24,851 nucleotides of DNA, from positions 1-24,851 of IMG/VR virus record IMGVR_UViG_2565956714_000001. One strand, 5' to 3'. Positions 1 through 13,159 of this stretch are shown here, in pieces; positions within the stretch are counted from its first letter, which is position 1; the number at the start of each line of letters is the position of its first letter. The stretch is from a virus (lineage: Duplodnaviria > Heunggongvirae > Uroviricota > Caudoviricetes). The notes beneath the pieces were generated by a model. That model searched no databases, had not been told where the DNA came from, and saw nothing but the letters and a program-made list of their open reading frames with translations. A program made the translations under genes and the position numbers.

Positions 1-1
1 T

Positions 2-118
2 CAGATGAAAGAATTAATCGGTAACGAAGGAGATATTCATGTCACTTGCAACCACAGTGAAGGAGAGCAAGTTACAGAGACGCATGTACACGCAGAAAGC
101 TCTCTGGTATCGCCATAA
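2..118 (+). CDS. partial ORF open from the window edge (3' end of an upstream early-left gene or a short ORF); function unknown
   Basis: Frame 2 is open from the first base to TAA at 116-118. It sits directly upstream of erf, where P22-type phages carry abc genes (positional analogy only). No RBS is visible inside the window. Confidence 0.3.
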   Translation, partial: QMKELIGNEGDIHVTCNHSEGEQVTETHVHAESSLVSP

Positions 119-219
119 TGGTGACCGCGAAGGAATGCGGGTATGCCTTAATTTGTCCCGAGTCGAAGTATTAAATCAGCGTTATTTCCTTGGGGAATGT
201 CCATTCTGAGAACAAACAT

Positions 220-825
220 ATGAGCAAAGAATTTTACGCAAGGCTGGCAGCTATTCAGGAGAATCTGAACGCGCCAAAGAATCAATACAACTCATTCGGC
301 AAATATAAATACAGAAGCTGCGAAGACATTCTTGAGGGTGTTAAGCCGTTACTGAATGGCCTGTTTTTATCAATCAGCGATGAAGTTGTGTTGATTGGTG
401 ATCGGTATTACGTGAAAGCCACGGCAACTATTACTGATGGCGAAAACAGTCATACAGCAACCGCTCTTGCACGAGAGGAAGAAAGCAAGAAAGGAATGGA
501 TTCTGCACAAGTTACGGGAGCCACAAGCTCTTATGCACGCAAGTATTGCCTCAATGGTTTGTTCGGCATTGATGATGCGAAAGATGCAGATACAGACGAG
601 CATAAACATCAGCAGAACGCAGCAGCAAAGCAATCAAAACCATCACCTACACCTGAACAGGTTCTAAAAGCATTCACTGACGCAGCAATGCAGAAAAACA
701 CCGTGGAAGAGCTTAAACAGGCGTTCGCCAAAGCGTGGAAGATGCTCGAAGGCACACCGGAGCAGCACAAAGCGCAGGACATTTACAACATCAGACGAGA
801 CGAATTAGAAGGAGCGGCTGCTTAA
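220..825 (+). CDS. erf: Erf-family single-strand annealing (essential recombination function) protein
   Basis: The translation from MSKEFYARLAAIQENLNAPKNQYNSFGKYKYRSCEDILEGVKPLL matches P22 Erf as I recall it, including the SSYARKYCLNGLFGIDD segment. I chose the ATG at 220 rather than the ORF-track start at 190 because the remembered Erf N-terminus is MSKEFYARL. Confidence 0.92.
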   Translation: MSKEFYARLAAIQENLNAPKNQYNSFGKYKYRSCEDILEGVKPLLNGLFLSISDEVVLIGDRYYVKATATITDGENSHTATALAREEESKKGMDSAQVTGATSSYARKYCLNGLFGIDDAKDADTDEHKHQQNAAAKQSKPSPTPEQVLKAFTDAAMQKNTVEELKQAFAKAWKMLEGTPEQHKAQDIYNIRRDELEGAAA

Positions 826-1208
826 TGGCACATTCGATTACTGTAAGACTAAACAAGCCCGCAAGAGAGTTTCAGGCTGGGGAAAATATCGGATTCAACA
901 TCCGTGCTGGCGTTCAGTATTACGATCGCCAGACAAAAAAGAAAGAATGGACAAACTACAGCGCCGTTGTATTTGCCAAGCCGGGAGCGCAAGCGGATTA
1001 CTATCGTAGCGTTCTGGTTGAAGGAGGCATTGTAGAAATTACCGGAGAAAACATCAGGGTTGATGTTTATCAGGGGCAAAATGGTCAATCAATCACTCTT
1101 GAATTACTGAATGCAAAGATTGGATTTGCAACCTCAGGAAACAGCCAACAGCAGCAAAGTAGCAATCATCAAAATCATCCTGAATACGACGATTCAATTC
1201 CCTTCTAA
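825..1208 (+). CDS. ssb: phage single-stranded DNA-binding protein (SSB-like, OB-fold) with acidic C-terminal tip
   Basis: ATG at 825-827 overlaps the erf stop (TAATG). The protein ends ...PEYDDSIPF, like the DDDIPF tail of E. coli SSB, after a Gln/Ser-rich linker. The N-terminal ~100 aa are OB-fold-like (RAGVQYYDRQTKKKEWTNYSAVVFAK). The 90-nt upstream extension in the ORF track overlaps erf and is rejected. Confidence 0.8.
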   Translation: MAHSITVRLNKPAREFQAGENIGFNIRAGVQYYDRQTKKKEWTNYSAVVFAKPGAQADYYRSVLVEGGIVEITGENIRVDVYQGQNGQSITLELLNAKIGFATSGNSQQQQSSNHQNHPEYDDSIPF

Positions 1209-1231
1209 AGTAGCAACATAAGGATTCCATT

Positions 1232-1528
1232 ATGCCAGCGCCTCTGTATGGTGCGGATGACCCGCGCCGCTGTTCCGGCAATTCCGTATCGGAGGTGCTG
1301 GATAAATTCAGAAAAAACTACGACCTGATAATGTCTCTACCGCAGGAAACGAAAGAGGAAAAGGAATTTCGCCACTGTATATGGCTTGCAGAGAAAGAAG
1401 AACGCGAGCGAATTTACCAGACATCAATCCGACCATTCCGCAAAGCCACATATACCCACTTCCCTGAATATATCGACCCGCGCCTGCGTAATTACCGCTC
1501 ACGCTATGGCGCTATCAGTAATGACTGA
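1232..1528 (+). CDS. hypothetical early-left protein (98 aa)
   Basis: ORF with an AAGGA RBS about 8 nt upstream (taaggattccattATG). It occupies the position that kil-like genes hold downstream of erf in P22; no motif is recognised. Confidence 0.6.
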
Positions 1529-1548
1529 GGAATTTACCATGAGAGGAC

Positions 1549-1706
1549 TTGCATACAATCCCGGCATTCTTCCGGCAGAAATGATTATTCGCCAACGCGT
1601 AAAGCCAATGCCATCGAGAGAGGAATTGCTTAAGAGAAAGAGTTTCGGTTCTGTTAATGACAACAAATATCTGAATGCGATGTTGCGCAAAGGAGGCAAC
1701 CGGTGA
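1549..1706 (+). CDS. hypothetical small protein (52 aa)
   Basis: GAGGAA RBS 7 nt upstream of the ATG at 1549 (ctgaggaatttaccATG). It sits at the position of c3 in P22-type early-left operons (positional only). The longer ORF-track version from 1386 overlaps the previous gene and lacks an RBS. Confidence 0.5.
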
Positions 1707-1786
1707 CTGGACATGCAGCGATCCTCGACATGTGCTGTGGCAGTCGCATGTTCTGGTTAGATAAGAATGACGAACGGGCGAGATAA
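1703..1786 (+). pseudogene. 27-codon GTG-initiated ORF with a SAM-methyltransferase motif-I-like peptide (ILDMCCGS); possible remnant of a methyltransferase gene
   Basis: Translation [27 protein letters not shown]. The hhDxxxGxG-like pattern resembles methyltransferase motif I, but the frame ends after 27 codons. Very tentative. Confidence 0.15.
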
Positions 1787-1836
1787 GCGATCGGTTAAGT
1801 GCTATAGTAATGCGCTTTTGTATTTATGGAGTGAAT

Positions 1837-2535
1837 ATGAAAAATATCCTACTGGCATCATTGTTAGTGGCATCGCCGGGTGCATTTGCAGCCAGCTTTG
1901 ACTGCCAAAAGGCTTCGACAGCAATCGAACATAAAATCTGCGATAACGAACGTCTGTCAAAATTAGACGAACAGCTTAGCTCTGCCTATTCTAGTGCCCT
2001 CAAAGAAAACCCAGAGAACGCAGACACCATAAAAATGGTTCAACGTCAGTGGGTAAATATGCGTGGAAAACTCACTGATAATAAGGCTCTGGAGCTGGCT
2101 TATCTTATCCAAATTAATGGCCTCAAAGGTTTGGGGAGTTCAGTCAGCGTAACAGCGGCCAATGAGATACCCACGTCGACGCAGAAACATTCTGAAGAGC
2201 AGGAAGAAACAAGTAAGGCAGAAGTTAAGTCGGTCAAGAACGGCAATAAGCTAACCTTAGAGTCATTCCGAGCTAAATATGTAGAAGTAGATGGTGAGTA
2301 TTACAGCACGACATCCATTCCTAGAGGCAGTTCGTTCTTGTTCACTTGCGCCAGTCGTATTGCTGATGACCAAGTGAATGTTTGGAAGAAACATGCAGCC
2401 AAAGAGGGCAAAATCGACCTATTCTTTGAGGTTGAGAATCACTTACACACTGCTATGTTGAACGCCAATTTCCAGAAGTTGAATTCAGACCCTGCCAAAA
2501 GAGGTATTTGTAATCTGATTAACGCAGTGCCGTAA
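1837..2535 (+). CDS. secreted/periplasmic DUF1311-like (lysozyme-inhibitor LprI-like N-terminal domain) protein; phage moron
   Basis: N-terminal signal peptide MKNILLASLLVASPGAFA, then FDCQKASTAIEHKICDNERLSKLDEQLSSAYSSAL, which matches the C..A...E..IC....L..LD..L...Y pattern of DUF1311 as I recall it. GGAG RBS before the ATG at 1837; own terminator downstream. Confidence 0.7.
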   Translation: MKNILLASLLVASPGAFAASFDCQKASTAIEHKICDNERLSKLDEQLSSAYSSALKENPENADTIKMVQRQWVNMRGKLTDNKALELAYLIQINGLKGLGSSVSVTAANEIPTSTQKHSEEQEETSKAEVKSVKNGNKLTLESFRAKYVEVDGEYYSTTSIPRGSSFLFTCASRIADDQVNVWKKHAAKEGKIDLFFEVENHLHTAMLNANFQKLNSDPAKRGICNLINAVP

Positions 2536-2543
2536 GTAAATTT

Positions 2544-2575
2544 AGGGCCACAGTTGTGGCCTTAAATATTTTTTC
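2544..2575 (+). terminator. rho-independent terminator after the DUF1311 gene
   Basis: GGCCAC-agtt-GTGGCC hairpin (2546-2561) followed by a T-rich run (ttaaatattttttc). Confidence 0.6.
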
Positions 2576-2741
2576 AGCCTTTTCTTATTTGTAATAAGCA
2601 GTACTTAGTAGTGCTTATAAAACAGAATAAAAAACATATGACTTTGGCGATTACCCAGTAAAGATATTCGAAATAAATGTAAATATCGGCAATGAATAAC
2701 AATCCTCGCACTCGCGGGGATTTCTTTTATATGGGGATAAT

Positions 2742-3542
2742 ATGACCATCCACTTTCACGGCAGCCCAATATGGGGGGATGAGCATGCCCCTACAGATAT
2801 GCTGATTAAAGCCCTTTACCGTGATGGTGGGGCTTTTGTTTCATTTGCCAGACCAGAGCAGATGAAAAAGATTGCCATGTTCCCTTGTGATATACGCCTT
2901 GATAACGGTGCTTTTAGCGACTGGATGAAAGCATTAAAGAAAGGCACTCCGGTAGACTGGAGTAAGAGACGAGCAAAATTCTACGACTTTGTTGGGAAGT
3001 GGTTCAGCAGAATTGAATGGTTTCTTATACCTGACGTTATCGAAGGGACAGAGGCAGAAAACGACGAGCAGATTGAGTTGGTTCCTGATTGGCTAAAATC
3101 AAAAGCGGTTCCGGTCTGGCATACCGACGAATCAATTGAACGTCTTTTACGCCTTTCTAGCAAATTTGAATGGGTGGCGATTGGATACTGCGGACCACAC
3201 AGGCACATACGCTCTAAATGGTGGGAACAGAGAATGGATGAAGTTTTCACTGAGCTTTATATCAATCGTAATTTGAAAGTGAAAATTCATGGTCTTCGAA
3301 TGCTCGACGTGAGAGTTCTTGGTATGTATCCGTTCGCCAGTGCGGATTCTACTAATGTTGCTGTTAACGTACCGAAGACAGAGAAGCGATTTCCTGAGAT
3401 TACCGACAAACTGGCACGCACAGCTGTACTTCGCGCTGCTATTGAAAAGGTGCACCCGCCATCGATATCAGCATGGGTAGACAGAAAGATGAGAGAGCCG
3501 GCGCAAGCCGGTTTTTTATTTGAATTCACCGACGCCGCTTAA
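2742..3542 (+). CDS. hypothetical 266-aa protein; possible TGT-fold (tRNA-guanine transglycosylase / DpdA-like) enzyme
   Basis: Clean ORF bounded by terminators on both sides. Motifs RLDNGAFS, LIPDVIEG, AIGYCGP and FASADSTNV occur in the order and approximate spacing of TGT-family motifs LTDSGGYQ, AFDEC, LMGVGKP and DMFDCV (from memory). No Cys/His zinc site is present. The functional assignment is speculative; the CDS itself is well supported. Confidence 0.6.
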   Translation: MTIHFHGSPIWGDEHAPTDMLIKALYRDGGAFVSFARPEQMKKIAMFPCDIRLDNGAFSDWMKALKKGTPVDWSKRRAKFYDFVGKWFSRIEWFLIPDVIEGTEAENDEQIELVPDWLKSKAVPVWHTDESIERLLRLSSKFEWVAIGYCGPHRHIRSKWWEQRMDEVFTELYINRNLKVKIHGLRMLDVRVLGMYPFASADSTNVAVNVPKTEKRFPEITDKLARTAVLRAAIEKVHPPSISAWVDRKMREPAQAGFLFEFTDAA

Positions 3543-3561
3543 TGCGGATTTCTTTTATCTG

Positions 3562-3588
3562 AACTCGCTACGGCGAGTTTTGTTTTAT
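3562..3588 (+). terminator. rho-independent terminator after the 266-aa gene
   Basis: AACTCGC-tacg-GCGAGTT hairpin followed by TTTGTTTTAT. Confidence 0.6.
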
Positions 3589-3599
3589 GGAGATGATAA

Positions 3600-3767
3600 A
3601 TGCACTTCCGAGTAACAGGTGAATGGAATGGAGAACCATTCAACAGAGTTATCGAAGCAGAGAACATCAACGACTGCTATGACCACTGGATGCTGTGGGC
3701 GCAGATGGCACATGCAGACGTAACCAATATTCGAATTGAAGAACTGAAAGAACACCAAGCCGCCTGA
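3600..3767 (+). CDS. hypothetical small protein (55 aa)
   Basis: ATG at 3600 preceded by GGAG (3590-3593). The stop codon lies within a GC hairpin followed by a T6 run. Translation MHFRVTGEWNGEPFNRVIEAENINDCYDHWMLWAQMAHADVTNIRIEELKEHQAA. Compact, with its own RBS and terminator. Confidence 0.6.
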   Translation: MHFRVTGEWNGEPFNRVIEAENINDCYDHWMLWAQMAHADVTNIRIEELKEHQAA

Positions 3768-3781
3768 TGGCGGTTTTTTAT
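3758..3781 (+). terminator. rho-independent terminator
   Basis: AGCCGCC-tgat-GGCGGT stem followed by TTTTTTA. Confidence 0.6.
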
Positions 3782-3824
3782 TGCCTGATTTGCAGGTTCG
3801 ATTCCCTATTCGGAGATAGCACTC

Positions 3825-4025
3825 ATGCAACACGAACTACAACCTGATTCACTGGTTGATTTGAAATTCATCATGGCTGATACTGGCTTCGGTAAAACCT
3901 TCATCTACGACCGGATTAAGTCCGGCGACCTGCCAAAAGCCAAAGTTATCCACGGGCGAGCAAGATGGTTATATCGTGACCATTGTGAATTCAAAAATAA
4001 GCTCTTAAGCCGCGCCAATGGGTAA
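3825..4025 (+). CDS. torI: TorI-like excisionase / recombination directionality factor (AlpA/Xis-family winged helix)
   Basis: The 66-aa translation MQHELQPDSLVDLKFIMADTGFGKTFIYDRIKSGDLPKAKVIHGRARWLYRDHCEFKNKLLSRANG matches my recollection of E. coli KplE1 TorI. GGAG RBS 9 nt upstream. Confidence 0.85.
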   Translation: MQHELQPDSLVDLKFIMADTGFGKTFIYDRIKSGDLPKAKVIHGRARWLYRDHCEFKNKLLSRANG

Positions 4026-4086
4026 AATAGCGGGTAAAATATTTCTTACATCTAAAAAACATCATTCCAATCAATCCCCTGCCGAT

Positions 4087-4131
4087 GGTGAGGCTTTATA
4101 GAAAAATACCTCACCATTATTTTGTAATTTT
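4087..4131 (+). terminator. possible terminator downstream of torI
   Basis: GGTGAGG ... CCTCACC stem with a large 15-nt AT loop, followed by attattttgtaatttt. Confidence 0.35.
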
Positions 4132-4140
4132 CGCATAGAT

Positions 4141-4179
4141 AAAAGAAAATAAATCACGAATTGTTTAAATTTGTGATTT
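4141..4179 (-). terminator. probable rho-independent terminator of the tailspike gene
   Basis: On the minus strand: AAATCACAAATT-taaac-AATTCGTGATTT (one mismatch) followed by ATTTTCTTTT. Confidence 0.45.
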
Positions 4180-4226
4180 ATTACACGCAATAATTATCAT
4201 GCTTTATTAAACCCTCCAGCTAATCC

Positions 4227-6293
4227 TTATATACTCCTTGAAATTTCAAACCAAATACCACTCAGTCTTTTTAGTGTTATAATTGTGTTGCCTGATATTG
4301 ACGCTATATCTTTTTCTCCTCTTAACCTTATAAGCTTGTTATTATGAATTAACTTTGATCCTATAGACATTCTTACTTGTATTATTTGCCCATCAATTCC
4401 ATTAGAAAAGTAACTTACAACTTTATTGTCAAGGTATATGCTTGGCCCGACAAATGCACTAGATGTGCCTCCCGGAGCAAAATATTCAATAGATGGGTCC
4501 TCAAGAGCGGTAACGTTATCTATTTTATAGAAAGGAGTCCTTCCCCTAATGCTATAGTACTGTGAGTAATTAGCATTTTTTGCTGAAATATCTATGGCAG
4601 AAATTCCTGTCATTAAACTATCATCTTCAACTAAGTATAATATGTGTCTGAAATTACCAGCCTGATGGATTGTTTCTCCATATATATTTATATTACCAAG
4701 AACAACACCATTTAGCTGGCAAAGATAAATAGCACATGCTGAATCACCGTTAGGTGTATATACGTTTCCAGATATGGAATACTCAGTCGTGCTTCCATTA
4801 ATCATCTTGGTAACACTCCTTCTGGAACTGTATATTGCATTATCAGGTAATTTAAGCGTCTGTGATGATTCTATTCCTATACAAGCTACAGATGCTGTTA
4901 TTGTATTATTTTTTAATGAAACATATCGCGAGTTAAAGCAATGTACTCCGTATCTCCAGTCACCTAGTATCATGTTGCCTATTATGTCTATACTGTATGC
5001 ACCTTGTGCAAACTGGATAGCTGCATCATCAGATATGTAACTAGAAGTAGAGGCTGACTGTATATAGTTGTTTGATATCTGTATATATCTAGATTCTCCA
5101 AAAATAATTGCTGATGATTCTGCATTGATTAGCCTATTTCCCTCTATTTTTACACGCTCGCAACCAGTTCCAAGATTTATATTACGATGCGAACCTCCAA
5201 TTAGTATATTCCCTGTAAATTCAGCATTAAATAACCCGAAAGCTTGCACGTTGTGAGTTCCGTTGATAACGGTGTTGTTTGACACAGTTATGTACTGAAT
5301 GGTTTTGTGTTGCGAATTCCATTTTACACTTCCAGTTTCAGTGTCTATGTTGTTTTGTGCTACTAAATATATACCAGCAATACCAACTGTTCCTGCACCA
5401 CTATCAGGATCTATGGGCATCTCAATTGTATTTCCTTCTATGGTATCGTATAAGTTTAGTGATGTGATATCTGTTGTTCCAATACGTATACCATATCGTT
5501 CAGTTCCATCAACACCGAAACCATATACTCTGTTTCTTAGTATTTTGCACCTAGTTGTTGCGCTAAGAAGAATTCCTCCTCTGGCAACACCATTTGCATT
5601 AATGGAACAATCACTAATTTCAAGGTCTGTGTGACCGGAAGTACCTTGCGAAAACAAGCAGACACCACCCTGTGCTGTGACAATCAGGCTAAGATCACTT
5701 ATTTTTTTTATGCCAACAGGTATTTCTACCTGAGAAACGAGATATGTGCTTCCTTTTTTACCTCTTACCCAACGAATTTTCCCAGAAGAACAGTATTTCA
5801 TAGCAGACACTATAGATTCTGTATCATCATTAACCCCATCACCAACAGCGCCGAATTGTTCCGGTGTAACATACAATGATTGATCATACAAAGTTCCAAT
5901 TGGCTGGACGCCAACCATCCCAGAACCAAGTGAAGATGAAAGCTCATACTTAAATTGGTCTGGGTCGTACTTCAACACATTTGGGAAATAAAATTGCTGT
6001 GCACCATACGCATCATAAACAGCCATAGAATGGCCTTGCACTGTAACGAACTTGGCGATCTGTCCGTTATACACAGGATAACCGGCAGAGTTAATAACAA
6101 TTGGTTGTTCTACCTGAACATGTTTACCATCTTCTCGTTCCAGATATACCGGAATCTGGTTTTCAGGATTTACCGGGTCCGTGTCAATTTTACCGATATA
6201 AATTTTTCCATTGGCTACGGCTTTAAAAGAACGCGCCATAGTGAAGAGTTGCGAAGGCATGCTCACTACAACATTGGCTGTAATGTCTGTCAT
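4227..6293 (-). CDS. tailspike protein: P22 gp9-type N-terminal head-binding domain fused to a divergent right-handed beta-helix receptor-binding domain
   Basis: The N-terminus [50 protein letters not shown]...[14 protein letters not shown] matches the P22 gp9 head-binding domain from memory. The remaining ~570 aa are beta-helix-like (NNT/GN/IxG coil repeats) with no P22 similarity, and the DNA there is visibly AT-rich. GGAG RBS upstream on the minus strand. Confidence 0.9.
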
Positions 6294-6425
6294 TTAATTT
6301 GCTCCAGATACAAGGAATCACCGCAGCGTGGCTACGGTTGGTGTTTGTTGCATACCGAAATGGTACGATTGTTGATTTGTACAGTAGGTTTTACGATGCC
6401 ATTCCACCCATTTGGTGAGGCATTG

Positions 6426-6683
6426 ATGATGTACAGCAAATACGATGAGGCGCAGTTCCACTTGAGGCTTACGCACGAGTTGCACGCTAAGATTAAGCAA
6501 CGTGCAAAAATGAATAACAGGTCTATCAATTCCGAAATTGTGGCTACGATGGAAGAATCACTCTCCAAACCATCACCTGTAAGCGGGTATCGTGATGAAG
6601 AAGAGAGGCTGGCCTCATTAATCTCGGAACGAGTAAAAGAAGTTGTGGCTGATATCCTTAGAAAAGAAAAAACCCGCAATTAA
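6426..6683 (+). CDS. mnt: Mnt-like ribbon-helix-helix repressor
   Basis: MMYSKYDEAQFHLRLTHELHAKIKQRAKMNNRSINSEIVATMEESLSKPSPVSGYRDEEERLA parallels P22 Mnt as recalled (RHH N-terminus and SKPSPVTGYRNDAERLA C-terminal region). GGTGAGG RBS precedes the ATG. The ORF-track frame from 5955 upstream is antisense to the tailspike and is not counted. Confidence 0.85.
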   Translation: MMYSKYDEAQFHLRLTHELHAKIKQRAKMNNRSINSEIVATMEESLSKPSPVSGYRDEEERLASLISERVKEVVADILRKEKTRN

Positions 6684-6697
6684 GCGGGTTTAGTTGG
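6669..6697. terminator. bidirectional terminator shared by convergent mnt and the arc-ant operon
   Basis: AAACCCGC-aattaa-GCGGGTTT hairpin. The minus-strand reading is followed by TTTTTTC (strong); the plus-strand reading by a weaker TTTAGTTGGTT. Confidence 0.65.
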
Positions 6698-6919
6698 TTA
6701 GTTATCAAAAAGTCCGTACGTTTCTTCTTCTTCAGGTGTAAGGGGAAGAATCTCTACTCTATCTATAGATACCTTTTCAATGTACCCATGAGGTCTACTT
6801 AAAATTAAAGCTCTCTCATGCCACAGAACTCCAAGAATGTGATACCTTCCAGCATCTCCTTTTACCCTGGCTCTTCCTTTGATTCTTGGCGGCATAATGC
6901 CATATCTTTTCTTTGCCAT
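6698..6919 (-). CDS. hypothetical 73-aa protein, last gene of the arc-ant operon
   Basis: Start overlaps the upstream stop by 1 nt (translational coupling). Translation MAKKRYGIMPPRIKGRARVKGDAGRYHILGVLWHERALILSRPHGYIEKVSIDRVEILPLTPEEEETYGLFDN. No family recognised. Confidence 0.55.
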   Translation of the reverse strand: MAKKRYGIMPPRIKGRARVKGDAGRYHILGVLWHERALILSRPHGYIEKVSIDRVEILPLTPEEEETYGLFDN

Positions 6920-7644
6920 TATGCAACATTGCTCCCATGAATCAGGTGTTGTAGTGCTTTAACACCCTCCGCATTGTAGCGGAATGCTTCCACCTGTTTG
7001 CTTGAATGCGCAGATTTATCCAAGAAGAACTTCCCGTACTGCTCAGTTTTGAGGTTGTTTGCGTTAGCAATGCGACCAATCTTGTTTGCCGTTACTCCAA
7101 GCTGCTCTGCAACCTCCCCTGCTGAGTAGTAATGCTCTTCTATTGCTGGAAGAGGTATTGCATTAAAACCAACTATCGGGTTGATTATGCTTGCTGCCGC
7201 AGTCTGCTTTGCTTCCGGCGCAAGATTTGGCATCAAATCTAACAGATTGGTAACAGCTTCAACCGTCATTTTCAATGTTCGTGCCTGGCGATACTCAACA
7301 AGTCCACTCGACGATTTACCGCTTTTAATGTGCGCTTCTTGCATACTTTCAAGTTTGTCTACAAGTGTTCGGCGAACTGCTTTAGATTCGCGAGCAGCAA
7401 CACGAAGCGCCTGCTTGATAGTCATGGAGATAACATCAATGTCAGCCCCGTTTTTCCGACCTACACTTTTTGTGTAGGTCTCGCCCTCCAATTCATCCTC
7501 AATTTTCTCGATGAATTTGTTGTTACGTACTGATGGCTCTCCACATAACTTGCGAGCTTCATTAACCATCATCAGAAGACTTTGGCTGTCAATGGTTTTA
7601 TCCGTGACAACGGATCCGATGTTTGCTACATTCTTCAAAGTCAT
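6919..7644 (-). CDS. antirepressor-like protein (Rha/KilA-C/ANT-type C-terminal region)
   Basis: Start at MTLKNVANIG with an AAGGAA RBS. The C-terminal HYYSAGEVAEQLGVTANKIGRIANANNLK resembles the DNA-binding segment of ANT/KilA-C antirepressor domains. Co-oriented with the Bro-N gene upstream. Confidence 0.6.
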   Translation of the reverse strand: MTLKNVANIGSVVTDKTIDSQSLLMMVNEARKLCGEPSVRNNKFIEKIEDELEGETYTKSVGRKNGADIDVISMTIKQALRVAARESKAVRRTLVDKLESMQEAHIKSGKSSSGLVEYRQARTLKMTVEAVTNLLDLMPNLAPEAKQTAAASIINPIVGFNAIPLPAIEEHYYSAGEVAEQLGVTANKIGRIANANNLKTEQYGKFFLDKSAHSSKQVEAFRYNAEGVKALQHLIHGSNVA

Positions 7645-7732
7645 TAGGCATTCCTTATGTGGTAGTAAGGGTGTGACATAGGCCGCCAGCAGCACACTGG
7701 CGGTTTTCTTTTTGCGCCGTCCGGCGCACCAA

Positions 7733-8359
7733 TCAATGAATCCATTCCTCGCCGCGCAGTTTTGTCAGCATTGGCTGAGCGTTCTTTACGACAAAATTGT
7801 TGGTATCAAGATTCTTCATTTCACGAAGAAGTGATTTCTTGGTTTCTTCTGACATATAGCGAGTCTCATATGCAATATCGTAAATTCTTCCTGAAAGCTC
7901 AGAACCAATTTGCTTCATTCCTGGGTAGATGTGTTTGCACATTTGTTGACTCTTCTCCATCCACAATTGTAAGTAGCAGAGATTAACCAGTTCTTCGTCA
8001 GTAAACTGTTTTGCAATCGGTGAGCATTCTGCCTGCCGATCCAAAATATCCAGCACCCAGCGGCGGAACTCTTTGGCTACCGGAGTGCGAGCAAACATCG
8101 CGATTAGGTGGGCACCGCGTAGTGAGAAAACTCGCACTTTTTTGCGATAATTTCCTGAGGTACTCACTTCGAGTACCTGAGTCATTCCGGCGCTAAACTC
8201 ATCGCTATACTTGTTATAAATCATTGTTACTGCACGGCTATTTGCATATTTAAGTGCAGATGCAATATTAGATGATGTAAACCAAACACCATGCATATCA
8301 CGGGTGGGCACCAACTCAACTCCGTGGAAGTTGTAATCTGATTTTGCTACAATATTCAT
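7733..8359 (-). CDS. ant: antirepressor, Bro-N domain protein
   Basis: Start at MNIVAKSDY (AAGGAAAC RBS); the ORF-track start at 8464 has no RBS. FHGVELVPTRDMHGVWFTSSNIASALKYANSRAV is Bro-N-like. It lies downstream of the arc-like gene as in P22 immI. Confidence 0.75.
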   Translation of the reverse strand: MNIVAKSDYNFHGVELVPTRDMHGVWFTSSNIASALKYANSRAVTMIYNKYSDEFSAGMTQVLEVSTSGNYRKKVRVFSLRGAHLIAMFARTPVAKEFRRWVLDILDRQAECSPIAKQFTDEELVNLCYLQLWMEKSQQMCKHIYPGMKQIGSELSGRIYDIAYETRYMSEETKKSLLREMKNLDTNNFVVKNAQPMLTKLRGEEWIH

Positions 8360-8437
8360 GTTAGTTTCCTTGCATACGGTTACTGACATAGAGGCCCGGT
8401 TTGTGTTCGCGCACTGCCGGGCTTCACTATTTTTATT
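8360..8437 (+). ncRNA. candidate sar-like antisense RNA covering the ant RBS
   Basis: On the plus strand, an extended -10 element TGcTACAAT (8345-8353) sits just inside the ant 5' end. A directional hairpin GCCCGG...CCGGGC (8394-8422) followed by TTCACTATTTTTATT lies in the arc-ant spacer. Positional analogy to P22 sar. Confidence 0.3.
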
Positions 8438-8606
8438 GGATGACAACATCGCCCTTTGCCTCAAGTTTCATCAATAACTCCATTCGATAAGCTATCTCTG
8501 CCTGAATTGACCTATGGCATCTTTTTGCTGATTCGCGGATATGTGAATCAACCTTTTCTGTAAAACGAACCTGACGCGGCTTGATGGAAGATATCTTTTC
8601 AGTCAT
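8433..8606 (-). CDS. arc: Arc-like ribbon-helix-helix repressor (57 aa)
   Basis: Not in the ORF track (under 60 aa). Translated by hand: MTEKISSIKPRQVRFTEKVDSHIRESAKRCHRSIQAEIAYRMELLMKLEAKGDVVIQ. GGAG RBS 7 nt upstream. It is the first gene of the antirepressor operon, as in P22. Confidence 0.7.
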   Translation of the reverse strand: MTEKISSIKPRQVRFTEKVDSHIRESAKRCHRSIQAEIAYRMELLMKLEAKGDVVIQ

Positions 8607-8655
8607 TATGCACTCCTGTTTTTGAAAAACTCATAATCTCACTTTTTGTAGTTTG

Positions 8656-8684
8656 ATTATTCACTCACACTCAGTATGAGTCAA
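8656..8684 (-). promoter_or_regulatory. Pant-like sigma70 promoter with an embedded palindrome (candidate Arc operator)
   Basis: Minus strand reads TTGACT-17 nt-AATAAT upstream of arc. The inverted repeat ACTCA-gta-TGAGT (8669-8681) overlaps the -35 and spacer. Confidence 0.4.
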
Positions 8685-8705
8685 TGAATTTTTTATGGTG
8701 AACTA

Positions 8706-9347
8706 ATGAATTTTGACGATCAATTCCCATCAAGAGTATCTCTGGCAAGACAGTCCAGGGGTATGACGCAGGCGCAGTTGTCAAAATTAGCTGGTGTTGT
8801 TCAACGTCAAATAGCTGCATACGAGGGTGGTGAGGCTAAACCACGGCTTCGTGTATTGCAGGCATTAGCCAACGCATTAGGCACTACGGCTGAGTGGTTA
8901 GCTCTGGGTGAAGGTCAGGGGCCTGGAACAAAAAACGTCATGCCTGACGTTCTGGTAAAGCAAATACCAATCCTCAAACTAGATGAAGTTATGCATTACC
9001 TAAACACAGGTGAACATTCATCGTCTAGATTTCATCCGGCAATATACAATGTTGGTGACTCTGCATTTGCATTGACTATTGAAGGTGAAGCTATGACTAC
9101 AAGTTCAGGTATTAGCTTTCCCAGAGGATCAGTTGTCACGTTCAGCCCTCTAGTAAAAGCTAAAAGCAAAGATTATGTAATAGCATCATTGGATAAAGAG
9201 CAAATATTGAGCTTCAAGCAGGTTTACATTGGTGAAATAGAGACAAACTTAGTATCCCTAAACCCAATGTATCCTAATATTCTTGTTAGAAATGAAGATG
9301 TTAGTATTTTGGCAACCGCAGTTTACCTTGAAATCCCGTTGCTTTGA
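8706..9347 (+). CDS. lambda-CI-like regulator: XRE-type HTH plus S24 (LexA-like) C-terminal domain with catalytic Ser replaced by Ala
   Basis: N-terminal HTH MTQAQLSKLAGVVQRQIAAYEGGEAKPRLRVLQALANALGTTAEWLALGE. The C-terminal VGDSAFALTIEGEAMTTSSGISFPRGSVVTF aligns to lambda CI [33 protein letters not shown], with GCT (Ala, 9090-9092) where CI has the nucleophile Ser. The Lys of the dyad is retained (LSFKQVY vs FTFKKLI). No Ala-Gly cleavage motif is seen in the linker. Confidence 0.8.
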   Translation: MNFDDQFPSRVSLARQSRGMTQAQLSKLAGVVQRQIAAYEGGEAKPRLRVLQALANALGTTAEWLALGEGQGPGTKNVMPDVLVKQIPILKLDEVMHYLNTGEHSSSRFHPAIYNVGDSAFALTIEGEAMTTSSGISFPRGSVVTFSPLVKAKSKDYVIASLDKEQILSFKQVYIGEIETNLVSLNPMYPNILVRNEDVSILATAVYLEIPLL

Positions 9348-9411
9348 TATCCTTTAGGAAGCGACACATTATCATCCGGTGTTCTGCTCAAAACTAAGGA
9401 GTGGCTACTCA

Positions 9412-10050
9412 ATGAAAAAAATAGATATATATAGCGATACATCAGCCTATGTCATAGGCTCATTGGGTTTTTTAATTTTTTTTGTTTGGCAGTACCAGTC
9501 ACTATCTCCAGGATGGAGATTTTTGGGGATGTCTTTGATATCACTTGGTGCAGGAATAGCAACGCAGGTGTTGATGTATCTCTTTAATGGATGGATCTCA
9601 AAAAGAGTTGAGAAAAAAAGAGCTACTTCAATATGTAGAAGCCTAGCTATTCCAGAAGACTCTACAGATCAGGATGATATTGCAAAATGTTGGCGGTATA
9701 TGATTGCAAGATACTCAAATGAGTTACTGGCAAACAGACTGTCCGACTTAATCGGGATCGTAGTTACCTCTGTTGGAACAATCATCAGTATAGGGATATC
9801 AATTTGGTATGTCGGGATGATTGTCTATTTTGTTTGGAATAGAGACTTCAATGAACCTTCCCTTCTTTTTATACCTTTATTTTTCAGGGTATTAGCATTC
9901 ATATGTGAGTTATTGCTCTCTTTTTTCTGCAATGTTTTGTTCAACAGATACCCAGGTGAAGCAAGAAAGTTTAATAAAAACTATGATGAGTTAAGGAGAA
10001 CAGATCCTTTTCTATCAAGCAAAGAGTTCCGCGATTCCATTCGCAATTAA
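9412..10050 (+). CDS. inner-membrane protein with four predicted TM helices; possible SieA-like superinfection exclusion protein
   Basis: AGGAG RBS before the ATG at 9412. Four hydrophobic segments are visible in the translation. The DNA is AT-rich. It occupies the slot where P22 has sieA; the function is positional inference only. Confidence 0.55.
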   Translation: MKKIDIYSDTSAYVIGSLGFLIFFVWQYQSLSPGWRFLGMSLISLGAGIATQVLMYLFNGWISKRVEKKRATSICRSLAIPEDSTDQDDIAKCWRYMIARYSNELLANRLSDLIGIVVTSVGTIISIGISIWYVGMIVYFVWNRDFNEPSLLFIPLFFRVLAFICELLLSFFCNVLFNRYPGEARKFNKNYDELRRTDPFLSSKEFRDSIRN

Positions 10051-10097
10051 CAACATCCATGACATCAACCCTTAGCGATCAGTTGCATCATTGGCAA

Positions 10098-10100
10098 GTA
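10098..10100. repeat. IS3 target-site duplication, left copy (GTA)
   Basis: GTA immediately outside the IS3 left inverted repeat; the same trinucleotide is at 11359-11361. Confidence 0.7.
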
Positions 10101-10165
10101 TGATCTTACCCAGCAATAGTGGACACGCGGCTAAGTGAGTAAACTCTCAGTCAGAGGTGACTCAC

Positions 10166-10465
10166 ATGACAAAAACAGTATCAACCAGTAAAAAACCCCG
10201 TAAACAGCATTCGCCTGAATTTCGCAGTGAAGCCCTGAAGCTTGCTGAACGCATCGGTGTTACTGCCGCAGCCCGTGAACTCAGCCTGTATGAATCACAG
10301 CTCTACAACTGGCGCAGTAAACAGCAAAATCAGCAGACGTCTTCTGAACGTGAACTGGAGATGTCTACCGAGATTGCACGTCTCAAACGCCAGCTGGCAG
10401 AACGGGATGAAGAGCTGGCTATCCTCCAAAAGGCCGCGACATACTTCGCGAAGCGCCTGAAATGA
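10166..10465 (+). CDS. insE: IS3 transposase OrfA (InsE, HTH)
   Basis: [54 protein letters not shown]... matches the recalled IS3 InsE. Confidence 0.92.
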
Positions 10466-11328
10466 AGTATGTCTTTATTGAAAAACATCAGGCTGAGTTC
10501 AGCATCAAAGCAATGTGCCGCGTGCTCCGGGTGGCCCGCAGCGGCTGGTATACGTGGTGTCAGCGGCGGACAAGGATAAGCACGCGTCAGCAGTTCCGCC
10601 AACACTGCGACAGCGTTGTCCTCGCGGCTTTTACCCGGTCAAAACAGCGTTACGGTGCCCCACGCCTGACGGATGAACTGCGTGCTCAGGGTTACCCCTT
10701 TAACGTAAAAACCGTGGCGGCAAGCCTGCGCCGTCAGGGACTGAGGGCAAAGGCCTCCCGGAAGTTCAGCCCGGTCAGCTACCGCGCACACGGCCTGCCT
10801 GTGTCAGAAAATCTGTTGGAGCAGGATTTTTACGCCAGTGGCCCGAACCAGAAGTGGGCAGGAGACATCACGTACTTACGTACAGATGAAGGCTGGCTGT
10901 ATCTGGCAGTGGTCATTGACCTGTGGTCACGTGCCGTTATTGGCTGGTCAATGTCGCCACGCATGACGGCGCAACTGGCCTGCGATGCCCTGCAGATGGC
11001 GCTGTGGCGGCGTAAGAGGCCCCGGAACGTTATCGTTCACACGGACCGTGGAGGCCAGTACTGTTCAGCAGATTATCAGGCGCAACTGAAGCGGCATAAT
11101 CTGCGTGGAAGTATGAGCGCAAAAGGTTGCTGCTACGATAATGCCTGCGTGGAAAGCTTCTTTCATTCGCTGAAAGTGGAATGTATCCATGGAGAACACT
11201 TTATCAGCCGGGAAATAATGCGGGCAACGGTGTTTAATTATATCGAATGTGATTACAATCGGTGGCGGCGGCACAGTTGGTGTGGCGGCCTCAGTCCGGA
11301 ACAATTTGAAAACAAGAACCTCGCTTAG
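10462..11328 (+). CDS. insF: IS3 transposase OrfB (InsF, DDE catalytic domain); expressed as an OrfAB fusion by -1 frameshift
   Basis: [36 protein letters not shown]... with DDE-type motifs ([17 protein letters not shown]). It overlaps insE in the -1 frame. Confidence 0.92.
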
Positions 11329-11341
11329 GCCTGTGTCCATA

Positions 11342-13159
11342 TTACGTGGGTAGGATCAGTATTGGTCTGATGGCATTTGCGGCGTTATTCAGCGCTCTTT
11401 CATAGGCTGGCGTTCCAGCTTTAGTGTTTGCCAGACGTAAGAGCGCATTCCTTGCTGCTTTGGACTCATACAAGCGCATCATTGCACCGAAACCAGCCTC
11501 AAGCCCCATTGATACGCCAAGAGTCGCAGTTGCGCCAATCGTCCTTATCCTGTTGGCTTGCGATTGCCCCGTCTGAGTTACTACATTTGCGGTGTCTGAC
11601 CTTGCTGTTTGCTGTAGAACTTCATTAAGAGCATCAAGTTCTTTCATGTGCTTTCCAGAAAAAATAGTGTTGTAAATTTCACCTCCTGACTGAGATTTCA
11701 GCTTATTAACTTCAGTGATGAACTTGGCTGGAGAGTCACCGGCCTTTTCCGCTATTTTGCTGACGTAAGCTGCACGCATAGCATCTTTCCCTTTATCATC
11801 CAGTGCGCTCCAGATTCGTTTCACGTCAGATGGTTTTCTGCTTAATACAACGGTATTTATAAGTTCAGGACTGGCTTCACTGCTTGCCTTGTTGAGCTTG
11901 TTGGCAATGTTTTTATTAAGCACCTTATTATAAACGTTTGCATAATCGGAATTTGCTTTAAGGTATTTTGCTGCGTCTGATGCACCGAGGTTTTTAGCAA
12001 CTGCGTTACGAAGGTCTTTTGACATTGCATTCTCTACCATATTGGTAGCTGCTTTTGCCTGGTTGGGGAAGACCATAGCATCTCCCTGAACATTAGATCT
12101 AAATGCTGTTCTGTGCTGACGCAAGAGATCAAACGTAACATCCAAATCAGTTGCAGGGTTTGCTAATTCTTCACGTAGGTTACGCAAGGATGTAAGCAGG
12201 CTTTGATTGGCTGAAGTCCCAAGCCGTTCCTGTCTTGCGATCGCTGTATTCAGAGCATTCATGGTATTTGTGGTATCAACTGCGGCATTACCCATTTTAT
12301 TGGTGACGTCATTGATAACAGCGCCAGCAGCATCCTTCCGCCCCCTTAACGTGGTGGTCAGAGATTTCACCACATCATCAGGGTTGTACTCACCAAAACG
12401 GTCAAAATAATTGCTTACCAGCTTACTACGCGTTGCATATTGCTCCGCTCGCTTTGAGCCTGTCCCGAGCAAAGCCCCCTCGGCATCCTGAGTAAGGCCG
12501 CGAGTGAAAGCATTTTTCGGCGGGATAACATCAGATGTCATTGGTGTCACGCCCATCGATTCTGATGTGGCAATTTTCTTCGCCACTTCTGGCGCAATAT
12601 CACCTTTTATAGCCGTTATTCCACGCCCTATTCCCTTTGCTGCTGCGGAAAGAACACCCTGAGCGGCAAGGTTAACTCCGGCATTTTTAGCTGCATTTTG
12701 TGCGAAATCGCCTTTCTGATTTGCGGCCTCTGCCAGTGATCCAATAGCCATGCTTCCTGCCGTTCCAACTCCTGGAACTAAATACCCGCCAATTGTTTCT
12801 CCAGCTTGCGCATAAGGGTCTGTTGGTCGATCTACTGGACGATAGACATCGTCCAAAACCTTGGGGCCACCAAGCCCCTGGCTGATTGCATTAATCAGAC
12901 TTGCGCCACCCTGCAATACGTCAAATGGTATATTTACCAGACCACGACCAGCCTGCTCTGCAATTTGCCCTGCACTTTGACCACCAGTGAGCAAGTCAGT
13001 AGCTTTTTCTACCAGAGATTGTTCTTCTGGCTGCGATTGGTTTTGAGTGGATTGATCACCAGAAGACAGCATCTGAGCAATGCGACGTGCTCCCTCAGTA
13101 TCACCAGCAGCATCAGCATTCCTTAACGCCGTCATCAATTGTTCACGACTATAGGCCAT
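11342..13159 (-). CDS. ejection (pilot/internal) protein, P22 gp16-like; C-terminus altered by the IS3 insertion
   Basis: 605-aa ORF at the gene 16 position, co-oriented and coupled to the gp20-like gene. Its last codons and stop (11342-11358) lie inside the IS3 right end. Confidence 0.8.
11359..11361. repeat. IS3 target-site duplication, right copy (GTA)
   Basis: GTA immediately after the IS3 right end, identical to 10098-10100. Confidence 0.7.

Follow-up and report, generated by a model that had tools for sequence, protein, structure and literature searches.

The locus raises a simple question: why does phage DNA carry an intact excisionase gene directly facing a tailspike gene, with no integrase gene beside it? 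The DNA analyzed, called the window below, is a stretch of 24,851 nucleotides. In it the torI ORF (3825-4025, plus strand, 66 aa) is intact and is followed by a spacer of 201 bp (4026-4226), which has a GC content of 30% versus 46% for the window, and then by the 3' end of the tailspike gene on the opposite strand. This order, including the AT-rich spacer, was described in an earlier note made from the sequence and is confirmed here, as is the statement that the window encodes no tyrosine or serine recombinase. The best hit in a tblastn search of the window with the HK620 integrase had E=1.7, and the Pfam families recorded for the called genes of the window include no Phage_integrase (PF00589), Resolvase or Recombinase. 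The sole recombinase-type gene in the window is the DDE (rve) transposase of an IS3 element. As both sides of the torI-tailspike junction lie within the window, an integrase gene placed next to it by circular permutation is impossible. We are confident that the region is an argW-type site-specific recombination module of a P22-like (Lederbergvirus) prophage that has been cut by one blunt deletion of 2,857 bp.

The identity of the excisionase is straightforward. The encoded protein is 100% identical to E. coli TorI, to HkaC of phage HK620 and to the H2 product WP_001163428.1, and all 66 of its 66 residues matched PDB 1Z4H, the NMR structure of the "Tor inhibition protein" (E=6.6e-43), together with a weak match to Pfam HTH_17. 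The gene therefore encodes the 66-aa winged-helix recombination directionality factor TorI/HkaC. What should follow such a gene was read from the relatives that we opened, which were HK620, Sf6, HF4s, N7, Bas106 and the prophages of E. coli strains H2, S88, and no107. The layout 3' of torI is a P arm with two GGGTAAAAT repeats, which overlap the torI stop codon, the core CTGCAGGGGACACCAT, the P' arm, the integrase gene (1158 bp), in some cases a cargo gene (oac, gtrABC or a small ORF), and a convergent tailspike gene. The spacing of the module is constant in nine loci: the torI ATG begins 35 nt, and the core 309 nt, after the first base of a 16-mer upstream of torI (discussed below). In KplE1 the 16-nt core CTGCAGGGGACACCAT, which is the argW 3' end, was defined experimentally, and five TorI sites (GTTCG/GATCG/GTCCG) plus IntS arm-type sites lie on attL, at the integrase side of the core, and overlap the intS promoter (PMC2951348). 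The core identity and the attL placement of the five TorI sites are given in PMC2951348 and PMC3509656. In the circular form of KplE1-type phages torI and intS flank attP (PMC2951348), and the earlier note had this background right. Read from the upstream side, the order of an intact module is terminator, predicted pI promoter with the 16-mer, torI, P arm, core CTGCAGGGGACACCAT, P' arm, intS, cargo gene and convergent tailspike gene.

The window has only the left part of this module (Table 1). The GGGTAAAAT repeats are present at the torI stop codon and the 16-mer is present 35 nt ahead of the torI ATG. The upstream region (16-mer, predicted pI/cII site and terminator) and the P-arm repeats have 97-98% DNA identity to the KplE1/HK620/Sf6 module, with the same spacing. 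The core 3' of torI, the P' arm with its five TorI sites and the IntS gene are absent. No copy of CTGCAGGGGACACCAT was found in the window when up to three mismatches were allowed (its expected start is 4099), and when the HK620 attP-int region was compared with the window by blastn only the first 64 nt, which are P arm, aligned and no P' arm with TorI/IntS sites was detected.

Table 1 Features of the torI-tailspike region and other elements of the window
Feature	Position	Strand	Basis or remark
2,853-bp segment	1232..4084	+	100.000% identical, no gaps, to L016 7633-10485 (KE705264.1)
55-aa ORF, final early-left gene ahead of torI	3600..3767	+	common to lambda and HK97-type phages
Intrinsic terminator-like hairpin GCCGCC-TGAT-GGCGGC, then T run	3757..3784	+	kept in lambda too
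TTGC-N5-TTGC	3781..3793	+	HK620 record AF335538: cII-binding site, predicted "phage integration" promoter pI
TTGCAGGTTCGATTCC	3790..3805	+	argW variable-loop end, 5' T-stem, T-loop, 2 nt of 3' T-stem
Shine-Dalgarno GGAG of torI	3812-3815	+	sequence
torI (hkaC / Sf6 gene 18)	3825..4025	+	recombination directionality factor (excisionase)
Retained P arm of attP	4018..4084	+	HK620 "attP" annotation, alignment; ends 14 bp short of expected core
GGGTAAAAT arm-type-like repeats	4020-4028, 4032-4040	+	motif positions
Deletion junction, CCCCTGCCG joined to ATGGTGAGG	4084..4085	.	blunt; no microhomology, no filler
Hairpin ATGGTGAGG-N15-CCTCACCAT, T-rich tail	4085..4131	+	fold; 99.8% identical to H2/A23 downstream of EpsG-family CDS
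Hairpin, T-rich tail	4149..4181	-	fold; probably tailspike terminator
Tailspike gene, 688 aa	4227..6293	-	PF09008; P22-like N-terminal head-binding domain
IS3 copy, 1258 bp	10101-11358		orfA, orfB with rve domain; TGATC...GATCA ends; 3-bp GTA duplication both sides

The end of the P arm and the start of the tailspike side meet at a single point. Homology on the left, to HK620, Sf6, S88, and L016 (a second locus of the same strain, on scaffold KE705264.1), ends at 4084, which is 14 bp ahead of the expected core. Homology on the right, to E. coli strains H2 and A23 (99.8% identity), begins at 4085, 5 bp past the stop codon of an EpsG-family gene. The dinucleotide CG at 4083-4084 was considered as filler and rejected, as S88 and the attR copy of the same strain have it too, which makes it an allele of the left parent. 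The tailspike of the window, the C-terminal receptor-binding part of which has a GC content of 37%, was found among complete genomes only in H2 and A23 (2/5,426), where the gene order is argW, intS, EpsG-family gene, tailspike. From these two other strains we infer an EpsG-bearing parent, and relative to that composite parent the computed deletion is 14 + 2843 = 2,857 bp. It removed the final 14 bp of the P arm together with the core, the P' arm, intS and the EpsG-family gene. The truncated P arm was thereby joined to the terminator of the EpsG-family gene, such that torI now faces the tailspike gene. Judged by its sequence, the hairpin at the junction looks like the former terminator of the deleted EpsG-family gene, now directly 3' of torI. 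The suggestion that the integrase had been deleted is thus supported and extended, since the attP core, the P' arm and the cargo gene are also gone. The companion suggestion that the element uses a host or helper integrase is not supported, because no core is left at the junction on which such an enzyme could act. With the partner integrase, the crossover site and the mapped TorI sites gone, no integration or excision by site-specific recombination can take place at this junction.

A junction of this type could be produced by assembly, if a contig ending in a repeat had been fused chimerically to the one with the tailspike gene. In the draft E. coli assembly GCA_000457305.1 the window corresponds to scaffold KE705262.1 (25,740 bp) from base 890 onward, which is the stretch free of Ns. 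Within this assembly the 2.85 kb to the left of the junction form an exact repeat, and the left end of the scaffold has a small duplicated-sequence gap artefact, both of which would suit a misjoin. However, an independent Logan contig from run SRR785531 covers window positions 4055-10127 and hence spans the junction, so the join is present in the reads. On the P-arm side it extends over exactly 30 nt and then stops, which is what the start of a repeat would lead one to expect. Moreover, 4085-10127 is one unbranched contig, the tailspike end has a single left neighbor in the reads, and the two joined sides share no sequence able to cause a misjoin in the assembly graph. We consider an artefact highly improbable. 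The exact 33-nt junction sequence had no match in the IMG/VR viral contigs, the GTDB species-representative genomes or the JGI metagenome contigs, and BLAST searches of 50,697 phage records plus 5,426 complete E. coli genomes gave no record that runs across the junction. Within the databases searched, only this strain and its read set have the junction sequence.

The 16-mer upstream of torI is the second peculiarity of the locus. The earlier note had pointed to a tRNA T-arm-like motif and to a similar stretch in argW. The similarity is confirmed, although the position given (3793-3806) was off by one base, as GCAGGTTCGATTCC occupies 3792-3805. The match to argW extends to the 16-mer TTGCAGGTTCGATTCC (3790-3805), which occurs as a single copy in the window with 0 mismatches and is identical at 16/16 positions to nt 46-61 of the tRNA-Arg(CCU) gene argW as annotated in E. 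coli H2, which reads ...GGGCTAATTGCAGGTTCGATTCCTGCAGGGGACACCA. The resemblance does not extend to structure. Only 2 of 5 T-stem pairs are possible in a T-arm fold of the 16-mer (local z=-0.24), ARAGORN reported no tRNA over the window, and the 16-mer is neither a tRNA gene nor a tRNA-like structure (cloverleaf or T-arm hairpin). It holds one GTTCG pentamer, which is a TorI site type, but a single such pentamer proves nothing. Note that nt 46-61 and 61-76 of argW are contiguous in the tRNA gene, yet flank a 293-bp segment of torI plus P arm in every member of the module.

The proposal that the T-arm motif is an att remnant was right in part: the motif is identical to argW and forms part of the module, whereas the real core is a different sequence that lies 309 bp downstream in the relatives. 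The strongest form of the proposal would make the 16-mer a functional att core and have the element integrate at the T-loop of argW with IntS supplied by a resident prophage. In its favor are the identity to argW and the CUS-3 record CP000711, which labels TTGCAGGTTCGATTCC as the attL and attR core. However, the KplE1 core was shown experimentally to be CTGCAGGGGACACCAT (PMC2951348), argW would not be restored by the sequence that follows the 16-mer on its 3' side, and the sites of the P' arm are missing. In S88, in H2 and in the second copy of this strain torI and the P arm come after the 16-mer, and then CTGCAGGGGACACCA at the true host junction. Because the 16-mer thus stands unchanged inside integrated prophages (H2, S88 and the other copy of the same strain), 309 bp ahead of the real host junction, it is not the crossover site, and we give integration through it almost no credence. 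The CUS-3 label has a simple source. In strain S88, which carries a CUS-3-like prophage, the 16-mer is followed by torI, then CTGCAGGGGACACCA and then dsdC, so the CUS-3 record ends at the first direct repeat and omits torI.

The 16-mer lies between the intrinsic terminator (3757-3784) and the torI Shine-Dalgarno sequence, within the stretch annotated in HK620 as the cII-activated promoter pI. This pI promoter at 3781-3793 is a prediction at the level of annotation, and a sigma-70 consensus scan across the T-arm motif and the TTGC stretch found no promoter. Phage lambda has a counterpart, TTGC-N6-TTGC, at the same position ahead of xis. The ORF of 55 aa farther upstream likewise stands ahead of xis in lambda, and ahead of torI in HF4s, N7, Bas106, S88, and H2. 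The 16-mer is therefore best described as a fixed argW-identical part of the module that lies in the spacer of the HK620-predicted promoter, and is neither a tRNA-like fold nor a crossover site.

The remainder of the window is that of a P22-like phage. Positions 1-4025 are the end of an early-left operon, which includes an ERF-type recombinase gene, abc2 and a number of small ORFs. Between 4227 and about 24655 lies the structural block, which has 92-96% DNA identity to HF4s, Sf6, HK620, and N7, in the order tailspike, immI-like region, gp16, gp20, gp7, gp14, gp26, gp10, gp4, coat, scaffold, portal, TerL and TerS. As judged from Pfam families, these are P22-type structural genes and a tailspike gene in the P22 order, which places the phage with Lederbergvirus. 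The insertion within the block is an IS3 copy (NF033516, 339 bits). It is 99.1-99.6% identical to the best-matching E. coli IS3 copies, and matches were found in 4,726 of the 5,426 genomes. The element entered eight codons ahead of the stop codon of the gene 16 homologue, which changes the end of the product from ...PILANDATDR (608 aa) to ...PILILPT (605 aa).

How a deleted attP region came to stand between early-left genes and a tailspike is suggested by a second copy in the same assembly. Both ends of scaffold KE705262.1 are in phage DNA. Another scaffold, KE705264.1 (1.48 Mb), begins inside a prophage and reads repO, cII, cro, cI, N, cIII, kil, Rad52-type recombinase, SSB, abc2, 55-aa ORF, torI, core, dsdC, dsdXA, emrYK and evgAS, an order that is canonical for the right end of E. 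coli argW prophages. The segment of 2,853 bp that it shares base for base with the window contains abc2 from its ATG, a DUF2737 ORF, an LprI-like ORF, a 266-aa ORF, the 55-aa ORF, torI and the truncated P arm. Past this segment KE705264.1 continues with CGCCAAGTAGATGT, CTGCAGGGGACACCA and host DNA, and so runs into an intact attR next to dsdC. The identity breaks off upstream of 1232, where the window has an ERF-type recombinase gene, KE705264.1 has a Rad52-type gene, and only short patches are identical. Given the identical segment and the divergence upstream of it, the strain holds two distinct early-left regions, one of which ends in attR and the other in the deletion joint.

Contiguous torI-attP-intS sequences, the arrangement that could have served as precursor of the junction, were found in 17 of the 5,426 complete E. 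coli genomes. Twelve of those 17 are chromosomes, each of which has matches at three or four places. The one array inspected, that of no107 (NZ_CP075374.1), has the order early-left genes, torI, intS, gtrABC, tailspike. We therefore favor, with moderate confidence, an origin of the junction as an internal joint between prophages that form a tandem or composite array at argW. In this view a second phage would have entered at the attR of an argW prophage already in place, and the hybrid att site inside the array would later have been deleted along with its intS and the cargo gene. The early-left genes and torI to the left of 4084 would derive from the upstream element and the tailspike-to-terminase block from the downstream element, the own torI and attR of which would adjoin dsdC on the other scaffold. 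An intS gene at the outer attL is assumed. The array also needs an extra assumption to accommodate the 100% identical copies, as independently acquired phages are expected to differ by 2-4% in the 1232-4084 segment, as relatives do. Gene conversion, sibling phages or a recent recombinant could each fill this role.

Two other routes were considered and rejected. Tandem duplication of a single prophage conflicts with the Logan contig, which is unbranched at the tailspike side, and with the early-left regions, which differ upstream of 1232. The unbranched contig indicates that the strain lacks a copy with the EpsG-terminator-tailspike arrangement. Campbell-type integration of an int-less circle via the shared 2.85-kb segment predicts a linkage of the flanks opposite to that observed. 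A search of the same assembly for an identical second ejection-protein gene (gp20 homologue) found none.

The earlier note had read the adjacency of early and tail genes as the mark of a circular or phage-form genome. In its fullest form this view takes the window to be the free circular or virion-form DNA of a P22-like phage lacking int and attP, held in a pseudolysogenic or carrier state beside a resident argW prophage that has the second torI. Across the junction the genes do stand in the order of the circular form, every structural ORF is intact and the scaffold ends on both sides in phage DNA. Contiguous torI-attP-intS also occurs in five small records that complete E. coli assemblies list as plasmids, two of them 39,448 bp long. 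However, these small plasmid-type records all retain attP and int, and a phage without int and the att core cannot form stable lysogens, yet this DNA was sequenced from a bacterial isolate. The free circle must also accommodate a chromosomal-type IS3 insertion with target duplication and a 2,853-bp torI segment that is base-for-base identical to the chromosomal attR copy. We regard such a circle as unlikely. The circular reading of the adjacency is probably wrong, given that the sequence comes from a draft chromosome assembly, that a second torI copy sits at attR and that tandem arrays are present in 12 complete genomes.

The locus is an ordinary rearrangement of the well-studied IntS/TorI/argW module. 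The excisionase without an integrase seen here is the result of a simple deletion rather than a new integration strategy, and it documents decay of the module. Two practical points follow from the comparisons. The 16-mer labeled "att core" in CUS-3 is an internal repeat of the module and can mislead the calling of prophage boundaries at argW. Moreover, a gene order like that of a circular phage can arise inside tandem prophage arrays and is no evidence of a free phage genome.

A more speculative role, which we think quite improbable, is that the downstream prophage, locked in the chromosome, is an obligate platform for lateral transduction, with the orphan TorI acting in trans. This prophage has intact pac-type packaging and structural genes, with its immunity and replication region apparently on the neighboring scaffold, and would be locked in through the loss of its own left att site and integrase. 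Induction would then lead to in situ replication and to headfuls packaged from pac through the tailspike and the torI/early-left block towards argW and host genes, which would be lateral transduction of the kind described for late-excising P22. The orphan TorI could in that event serve as TorR inhibitor, as repressor of the intS promoter and as excision factor for co-resident argW elements.

Among the closest known systems is the argW module of KplE1 (CPS-53), HK620, and Sf6, with which the window shares an identical TorI and identical spacing. The window differs in the cut P arm and in the lack of the core, of the P' arm (with the five TorI sites and the intS promoter) and of intS. CUS-3 (CP000711) also has the 16-mer TTGCAGGTTCGATTCC just beyond the 55-aa ORF, but its att label is a boundary call, and S88 has torI and the CTGCAGGGGACACCA core past the 16-mer. 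The argW prophages of H2 and A23 share with the window, at 99.8% identity, both the tailspike and the 142-bp intergenic terminator region. They have kept intS and the EpsG-family gene by argW and lost most of the phage, whereas the window has kept the whole structural block without intS and the EpsG-family gene. The tandem argW arrays, as in no107, likewise have an internal joint between two elements, with early-left genes and torI on one side and a tailspike end on the other, but there the internal attP, intS and the cargo genes gtrABC are retained. In lambda and P22 the 55-aa ORF, the terminator and the TTGC-repeat element also lie directly 5' of the excisionase gene, and the early-left and late operons also converge on the att region. 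In contrast to the TorI module, in which attP lies between the recombination directionality factor gene and the integrase gene (PMC2951348), xis and int of these phages are adjacent on one side of attP.

The GenBank record of phage CUS-3 (CP000711) terminates at the T-arm 16-mer (identical to argW nt 46-61), which is annotated there as the att core (L003 2731-2746 and L004 1-16, both CUS-3 loci). In E. coli S88, host to a CUS-3-like prophage, the 16-mer is followed by torI and by the CTGCAGGGGACACCA core, the latter 309 bp further on and ahead of dsdC (L011 1672-1995). Therefore, the CUS-3 record is apparently short, and ~325 bp of prophage, the excisionase included, appears to have been left out of it. 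In the tRNA gene itself, nt 46-61 of argW adjoin nt 61-76, but in every one of the HK620/Sf6/KplE1-type modules the two stretches are separated by a 293-bp segment that contains torI and the P arm. The module looks as if it were a 3' segment of argW with torI inserted.

Contiguous torI-attP-intS was also found on NZ_CP081786.1 and NZ_CP081778.1 (39,448 bp), NZ_CP081694.1 (29,741 bp) and NZ_CP146940.1 (12,756 bp). These small records, which complete assemblies of E. coli list as plasmids, may be P22-like phage genomes, whole or partial, that were assembled as separate replicons. Another E. coli genome, OZ040950.1, has an integrase gene and a P4-like satellite directly after torI (L020 10226-20168), and therefore attR of argW prophages also takes stacked satellites.

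The receptor-binding part of the tailspike is 37% GC and, among 5,426 complete genomes of E. coli, is present in only two, those of strains H2 and A23. In both it sits at argW, beside intS and a Wzy-like gene of the EpsG family (L008 and L009 7940-11209, the loci of the two strains). The EpsG-family gene and the tailspike look like a linked pair, in which an O-antigen-modifying gene accompanies the tailspike.

Coordinates of the features discussed (window positions; the last row concerns OZ040950.1)
Feature	Position	Strand	Remarks
Early-left ORF	1810-2535		241 aa
Tailspike receptor-binding part	4227-5950		
immI-like region	6426-10050		Tailspike on one side, gene 16 on the other
Arc/Mnt-like ORF	6426-6683	+	
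73-aa ORF and 258-aa ORF	6698-7695	-	
Bro-N/P22_AR_C antirepressor	7733-8464	-	
CI/LexA-like repressor	8706-9347	+	HTH and S24-peptidase
SieA-family protein	9412-10050	+	
IS3	10101-11358		Complete, 1258 bp; target duplication GTA at 10098-10100 and 11359-11361
IS3 orfA	10166-10465		
IS3 orfB	10462-11328		
P4-like satellite genes (OZ040950.1)			P4 cII, Ogr/Delta, primase and a gene with PF05125 (P2 capsid-scaffold Pfam family)

Several smaller features were seen in the window and its source assembly. Scaffold KE705262.1 has, immediately left of the window start (L014 16294-16350), a 10-N gap between copies of a ~45-bp duplicated stretch, tcagatgaaagaattaatcgg...cttgcaacca; the two early-left regions have this patch in common, and the gap with its duplication is an artefact of assembly there. 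The early-left ORF product starts with a stretch resembling a signal peptide, matches the LprI (lysozyme inhibitor) domain weakly (E=8.5e-5), and may be a secreted moron. In the host DNA of scaffold KE705264.1 (L016 17671-19083), the gene at the evgA position is called as a response-regulator fragment of 140 aa, where other strains have 204 aa, and a gene for a DDE_Tnp_1 transposase comes after it; evgA, an acid-resistance regulator, appears to be broken by an IS in the source strain.

IS3 is inserted eight codons upstream of the stop codon of the P22 gene 16 homologue, which is 608 aa ending in ...ANDATDR when free of the element and 605 aa ending in ...ILPT when carrying it. The ejection protein with the altered end may or may not retain function. 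Logan contigs L015 and L013 end 27 nt inside IS3 at either side (window 10101-10127 and 11332-11358), whereas at the torI repeat, the 2,853-bp segment present twice in the source strain, the contig reaches 30 nt in; the 3-nt difference is the length of the target duplication.

The immI-like region includes a CI/LexA-like repressor, and an extra CI-type repressor away from the main immunity region is unusual among P22-like phages. Phage JEP4 matches window 6290-9401 at 97%.
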